A stretch of DNA of 64,000 bases from Escherichia coli. GTDB lineage: Bacteria; Pseudomonadota; Gammaproteobacteria; Enterobacterales; Enterobacteriaceae. Positions within the stretch are counted from its first letter, which is position 1; each line of letters opens with the position of its first letter. Under the pieces are notes generated by a model. The model searched no databases and had not been told where the DNA came from. It saw only the letters and a list, made by a program, of their open reading frames with translations. Made by a program: the position numbers and the translations under genes. Of this stretch, positions 13,649 to 13,806 are shown piece by piece. The DNA lies in NCBI RefSeq assembly GCF_003334305.1, contig NZ_QOWS01000015.1. One strand, written 5' to 3'.

Positions 13649-13806
13649 TACAACCTCTTCTCTTTTTATGTTCGCTTAATCGTAGCGGCAATATGCGCTG
13701 AAGCAAGCTACTCATTCCGAAAAAGCACGAATATCGACATAGTTAGGCGCTGTTTAACTAACGCATGCTAGTTTAATGACATAAGGTAGGTGAAGCGGAG
13801 ATTGGA

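Follow-up and report, generated by a model that had tools for sequence, protein, structure and literature searches.

Conservation and homology point to an ordinary PhoP box upstream of Escherichia coli mgrB and to a predicted -10 hexamer overlapping the neighbouring GTTTA motif

The DNA upstream of mgrB very probably carries the known PhoP-activated sigma-70 promoter of this gene, in the standard layout of architectures I and II. The stretch analysed here, 64,000 nucleotides of E. coli DNA (the window), had been described in an earlier note as containing two PhoP half-site-like motifs with irregular spacing upstream of mgrB. Judged by conservation and homology, the site at 13740-13756 is instead very probably the ordinary PhoP box of mgrB, one that was already known, and the second of the two motifs, AGTTTA, is the -10 hexamer TAGTTT read one base out of register.

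Results

Of 5426 complete E. coli genomes, 5425 contained a match to the 1.1-kb stretch around mgrB, with 95-100% identity, and the RefSeq gene names in the matching genomes are yobH, mgrB ('PhoP/PhoQ regulator MgrB') and yebO. The mgrB coding sequence, defined by ORF translation and RefSeq annotation, occupies 13807-13950 on the plus strand and specifies a protein of 47 amino acids. Its GTG start codon is kept in 113/113 usable orthologues; gene and start codon are as the earlier note had named them. The divergent gene yobH (13409-13648, minus strand) is separated from mgrB by an intergenic region of 158 bp; kdgR (12475-13266, plus strand) also lies upstream, and yebO (14025-14312, plus strand) lies downstream. 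As a PhoP target mgrB is a textbook case, and it serves as a standard PhoP reporter. Moreover, a fragment of the E. coli mgrB promoter binds PhoP and has served as a positive control in EMSA (PMC8355897). The proposal that this upstream region is PhoP-related was correct, and the TGTTTA within it is a true PhoP half-site.

Both motifs that had been picked out are present, but their coordinates were one base off: TGTTTA lies at 13751-13756, not at 13752-13757. GTTTAA occurs at 13752-13757 and again at 13771-13776, and AGTTTA at 13770-13775. The spacing of this pair was rightly called non-canonical, since the GTTTA cores (13752 and 13771) are 19 bp apart, corresponding to N13 and not N5. The window contains eight same-strand pairs of GTTTA within 30 nt, compared with 3.2 +/- 1.9 in first-order Markov simulations, and the TGTTTA/AGTTTA pair is statistically unremarkable.

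Kato and colleagues reportedly described in 1999 the canonical repeat (T/G)GTTTA-N5-(T/G)GTTTA of mgtA and phoP (architecture I) in E. coli and Salmonella, and are said to have assigned to E. coli mgrB the same box as the one discussed here. When at most two mismatches were allowed, the pattern KGTTTA-N5-KGTTTA matched TAGTTA-GGCGC-TGTTTA at 13740-13756, with exact N5 spacing. This is a canonical-spacing repeat of the kind that the earlier note conceded it might have overlooked. Its suspicion of a misread register was also well founded: the true partner of TGTTTA is TAGTTA, 11 bp upstream, and not the motif 19 bp downstream. As read here, the E. coli mgrB box is TAGTTAGGCGCTGTTTA. On the plus strand it comprises a degenerate distal (upstream) half-site, TAGTTA, at 13740-13745, assigned by pattern match and conservation; a 5-nt spacer, GGCGC, at 13746-13750, of low conservation (0.16-1.0 bits); and a proximal (downstream) half-site, TGTTTA, at 13751-13756, which was the first of the motifs in the note. 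The proximal half-site matches (T/G)GTTTA perfectly (6/6) and the distal one at 4/6 positions, so that both mismatches to the search pattern sit in the distal half-site. Across the 64 kb of the window there are 36 sites with up to two mismatches, where 15.6 would be expected, and a two-mismatch match taken alone would be weak evidence for a box at mgrB.

The orthologous promoter of Salmonella, that of yobG (= mgrB), has both a PhoP-P DNase I footprint and an S1-mapped, PhoP-dependent start (Zwir 2012, PMC3335776). Its box, ACAGTTACTCCTGGTTTAA, has the direct orientation and is separated by 12 nt from the downstream -10 element TAATTT; transcription starts 5 nt after the -10 and the leader is 26 nt long (PMC3335776). 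The E. coli mgrB box superimposes on this site position for position (A-CAGTTA-CTCCT-GGTTTA-A in Salmonella, A-TAGTTA-GGCGC-TGTTTA-A in E. coli), with TAGTTA homologous to the CAGTTA of the footprinted box and the first repeat degenerate (submotif S2) in both species. The two promoters also share a weak -10 at a distance of 12 nt, TAATTT in Salmonella and TAGTTT in E. coli. The mapped start of Salmonella yobG, with its 26-nt leader, has a counterpart predicted by homology in E. coli mgrB, again about 5 nt past the -10 and with a leader of about 27 nt.

A PhoP weight matrix was built from 24 activating, footprinted Salmonella boxes, excluding yobG. The canonical mgrB box scored 8.8 bits, ranking 61 of approximately 128,000 window positions (top 0.05%). 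This value is below those of all 24 training boxes (10.9-22.6 bits); however, the footprinted Salmonella yobG orthologue scored lower still, at 4.8 bits, which indicates that the matrix under-scores boxes of the S2 type. The registers that would pair the motifs of the earlier note canonically scored -2.0 and -4.9 bits. By itself, the matrix is not decisive for the mgrB box.

Two other matches to the matrix were observed. Within the intergenic region the best was the 19-mer CTTTTTATGTTCGCTTAAT at 13662-13680 (plus strand), which outscores the mgrB box at 10.35 bits and leaves it in second place there; it falls in the yobH leader region, its key positions are poorly conserved, and the score probably reflects chance in a T-rich sequence. 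The best match of the whole window, ATGTTTAGTGTATTTTTAA at 17273-17291 on the minus strand, scored 15.1 bits with one consensus mismatch; its place is immediately past yobD and ahead of the mntP leader, and it may be a PhoP site or one for a different regulator, such as MntR.

Conservation was assessed across mgrB promoters of many species. Orthologues were gathered by searching species-representative genomes for DNA that could encode CDQDVQFF, the core of MgrB, in degenerate form, which yielded 120 loci; two of these matches (in Parachlamydiales and Pseudoalteromonas) were due to chance and were dropped. The 113 usable upstream regions, together with the window, gave 114 sequences from about 25 genera of Enterobacteriaceae, which were aligned without gaps on the proximal GTTTA. 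A GTTTA is present between 80 and 35 nt before the start codon in all 114, exactly once in 112 and twice in both Escherichia sequences. The distal half-site nAGTTA (13741-13745) recurs exactly 11 bp upstream, with A in 81, G in 102, T in 111, T in 84 and A in 114 of the 114 sequences, and the base preceding the proximal GTTTA is G or T in 108/114. Downstream, the TG of the extended -10 (13766-13767; +14/+15 from the anchor) is conserved (T 110/114, G 112/114), and the -10 hexamer takes the form T-A-n-n-n-T, with variable middle positions flanked by T in 105 and A in 114 promoters on one side and a final T in all 114 on the other. At the expected start (13780-13781) C is found in 71/114 and A in 96/114. 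The intervening positions of the alignment reach only 0-0.4 bits, which argues that the conservation is selective and does not merely reflect the relatedness of the species.

The earlier note had also entertained a box arranged in a different way; in such a box, PhoP would use TGTTTA (13751-13756) and AGTTTA (13770-13775), 19 bp apart. In terms of the hexamers alone this pair would be attractive, since they match the half-site consensus at 6/6 and 5/6 positions, compared with 4/6 for TAGTTA. However, the alignment does not bear it out: the downstream GTTTA occurs in only 2/114 promoters and is missing in the other 112, whereas the upstream partner at 11 bp is conserved. Furthermore, AGTTTA overlaps invariant positions of the -10, such that RNA polymerase would be occluded by an activator at that site, and with a 19-bp period the two sites would not share one face of the helix. 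For dimers of the OmpR/PhoB family, head-to-tail binding to repeats spaced every 11 bp is described (Zwir 2012, PMC3335776) and is also established knowledge. Given in addition that the Salmonella footprint spans the upstream pair (PMC3335776) and that GTTTA pairs of this sort are common by chance, we consider the 19-bp arrangement extremely unlikely.

The same results bear on the idea that none of the motifs is functional and that a constitutive promoter drives mgrB. Pattern and matrix matches of the quality seen here do occur by chance in the window, which would suit such a promoter, but about 25 genera show strong and selective conservation of the half-sites, the TG and the -10, with constant distances between them. 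The use of mgrB as a standard PhoP reporter and as an EMSA control in E. coli likewise speaks against it. So do the footprint and the PhoP-dependent, S1-mapped start in Salmonella (PMC3335776), and we give a constitutive promoter almost no credence.

The layout of the PhoP-activated promoter can be followed on the plus strand from the end of the box. The 12-nt interval between box and -10 (13757-13768) includes the TG of the extended -10 at 13766-13767; the complete element is TGcTAGTTT, with its hexamer placed exactly 12 nt 3' of the box end (13756). The -10 hexamer TAGTTT at 13769-13774, assigned by conservation and by homology to the TAATTT of Salmonella yobG, overlaps AGTTTAA at 13770-13776. 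By homology to the S1-mapped Salmonella start, transcription is predicted to begin at C13780 or A13781 (13780-13781, plus strand), which would give a leader of about 27 nt. Literature searches with the box sequence and its flanks brought up unrelated papers only, and those for an mgrB start yielded no explicit coordinate. A Shine-Dalgarno sequence, GGAG, is seen at 13797-13800 (plus strand), and a GGAG-rich block upstream of the start codon is conserved in all mgrB orthologues. The -35 position, 13746-13751, reads GGCGCT and is without a -35-like hexamer. A generic sigma-70 promoter scan made no call at the mgrB promoter, as expected for an activator-dependent promoter lacking a -35. A distance of 12 nt from box to -10 defines architectures I and II (Zwir 2012, PMC3335776), and the E. 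coli promoter has this layout, with a direct-orientation box 12 nt from the -10 that occupies the -35 position.

Other PhoP boxes allow this geometry to be compared. The mgrB box resembles those of mgtA and phoP in its 11-bp period, its direct orientation, its replacement of the -35 and its distance of 12 nt from the -10, but differs from them in the two mismatches of its distal half-site (TAGTTA) and in the TG of its extended -10. Within the same window, yoaE (mgpA) serves as an internal control for how box and -10 are placed; there, TGTTTA-ACTCC-CGTTTA at 20791-20807 (plus strand) is followed after 12 nt by TATAGG (to 20825), about 180 nt upstream of the ATG at 20987. In Shigella flexneri, yoaE is a PhoP target as judged by EMSA and footprinting (PMC5775216). 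The geometry of the yoaE box is the same as that of the mgrB box, but its half-sites are near-perfect and its leader is long (~155 nt).

In most other genera the -10 hexamer is TAACCT, TAATTT or TATCCT, without a GTTTA. A G at 13771 is common to 15/114 species only, and among the 114 promoters the second GTTTA is exclusive to E. coli and Escherichia sp. E1V33; its presence in the Escherichia -10 can be explained by a single change from the TAATTTA of Salmonella and Citrobacter. We see a very slim chance that this Escherichia-only A-to-G change (TAATTT to TAGTTT), which made the half-site AGTTTA, allows PhoP-P to bind weakly there at high concentration. If so, mgrB output would be capped, imposing a lineage-specific ceiling on the PhoQ/PhoP-MgrB feedback loop. 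A weak extra half-site on the -10, damping mgrB at high PhoP-P, would have a precedent in that PhoP boxes overlapping the -10 are probable repression sites, such as the second ugtL box (Zwir 2012, PMC3335776), and all five inspected E. coli variants retain the motif, as does Escherichia sp. E1V33. On the other hand, AGTTTA is a single half-site without an 11-bp partner, its 19-mer registers having the scores of -2.0 and -4.9 bits given above. Chance would suffice to produce it, since it is one base from TAATTTA at a weakly constrained position of the -10, and its retention within E. coli follows from its being the -10. A literature search turned up no published support for such repression, and we regard it as very unlikely.

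Variation within E. coli touches several parts of the PhoP-activated promoter. Over 13710-13794 the window and K-12 MG1655 agree at every base; the only two differences in 141 nt are at 13709 and 13795. The promoter variants found in E. coli change the box spacer (13747, G>A in one strain) and the 'n' of TGnTAGTTT (13768), two positions that are unconstrained. FXCREC035, an E. coli clinical urine isolate, has an IS5 in the CTAA at 13758-13761, where it separates the box from the -10, which fits the picture of a PhoP-activated promoter. Strain 2015C-3121 carries an IS1A in the same 1.1-kb mgrB locus. Both insertions are in keeping with a way in which tolerance to colistin or trimethoprim is known to arise.

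The Salmonella yobG promoter belongs to architecture II, having a second, upstream PhoP-protected site in reverse orientation, GTTTTTAGGAATGATTCAC (Zwir 2012, PMC3335776). The homologous sequence in E. coli, at 13708-13726 on the minus strand, is GCTTTTTCGGAATGAGTAG, which resembles a PhoP site only poorly. It is more degenerate than its Salmonella counterpart, which scores 9.0 bits, whereas the E. coli 19-mers on the minus strand score -3.0 bits (13708-13726) and 0.0 bits (13707-13725).

The sequence in this part of the intergenic region has features of its own. A conserved sigma-70-like promoter is directed toward yobH on the minus strand, with a -35 TTGCTT at 13706-13701, a 16-nt spacer and a -10 TACGAT at 13684-13679; the TTG of the -35 is kept in 53-54/54 species. 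Just upstream of this -35 lies a strongly conserved element, TTTT(A/C)GGAAT (13723-13714, minus strand), corresponding to the second, 'reverse' PhoP box that was footprinted in Salmonella. The core of the element, TTTT.GGAAT, is conserved in 50-54/54 species. Judged by its conservation pattern, the element is unlike a PhoP box, in that the 'spacer' GGAAT is invariant and the second half-site is poor; an UP element and a site for another factor are both possibilities. We considered whether a reverse PhoP box might serve the divergent yobH promoter, for which the geometry is suitable, but did not adopt this view, as yobH of Salmonella seems not to be regulated by PhoP/PhoQ (Banda 2019, PMC6726612).

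Further promoter-like sites were noted on the other side of the mgrB start codon. One, at 13928-13956 on the plus strand, overlies the 3' end of mgrB and consists of TTAACC, 17 nt and TATCAT with an upstream TG; from its sequence, yebO (ATG at 14025) could have a promoter of its own here. A second, weaker site lies inside mgrB, at 13877-13906.

Discussion

The results presented above are consistent with a model in which a dimer of PhoP-P would bind head-to-tail to TAGTTA-N5-TGTTTA (13740-13756) at the -35 position. Bound in this way, PhoP would stand in for the missing -35 contact, in a class II-type activation. PhoP and the extended -10 TGcTAGTTT, about one helical turn (12 nt) apart, would then together recruit sigma-70 RNA polymerase. 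Transcription would start near 13780/13781, producing a leader of ~27 nt with the Shine-Dalgarno sequence GGAG, and translation would begin from the GTG at 13807. Finally, the MgrB so made inhibits PhoQ, closing a negative feedback loop. The geometry, the conservation and the homology to the footprinted Salmonella site are direct results of the present analysis. For E. coli, the class II mechanism and the base-resolution PhoP contacts in this model are suggested by the Salmonella data together with general knowledge of the OmpR/PhoB family.

Beyond the correct annotation of the promoter, the significance of these findings is small. They do carry a lesson, namely that when half-sites are read by consensus alone, a -10 hexamer can be taken for an activator site. 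It is knowledge of the register, with the box at 13740-13756 and the -10 at 13769-13774, that makes insertions in the mgrB promoter interpretable.
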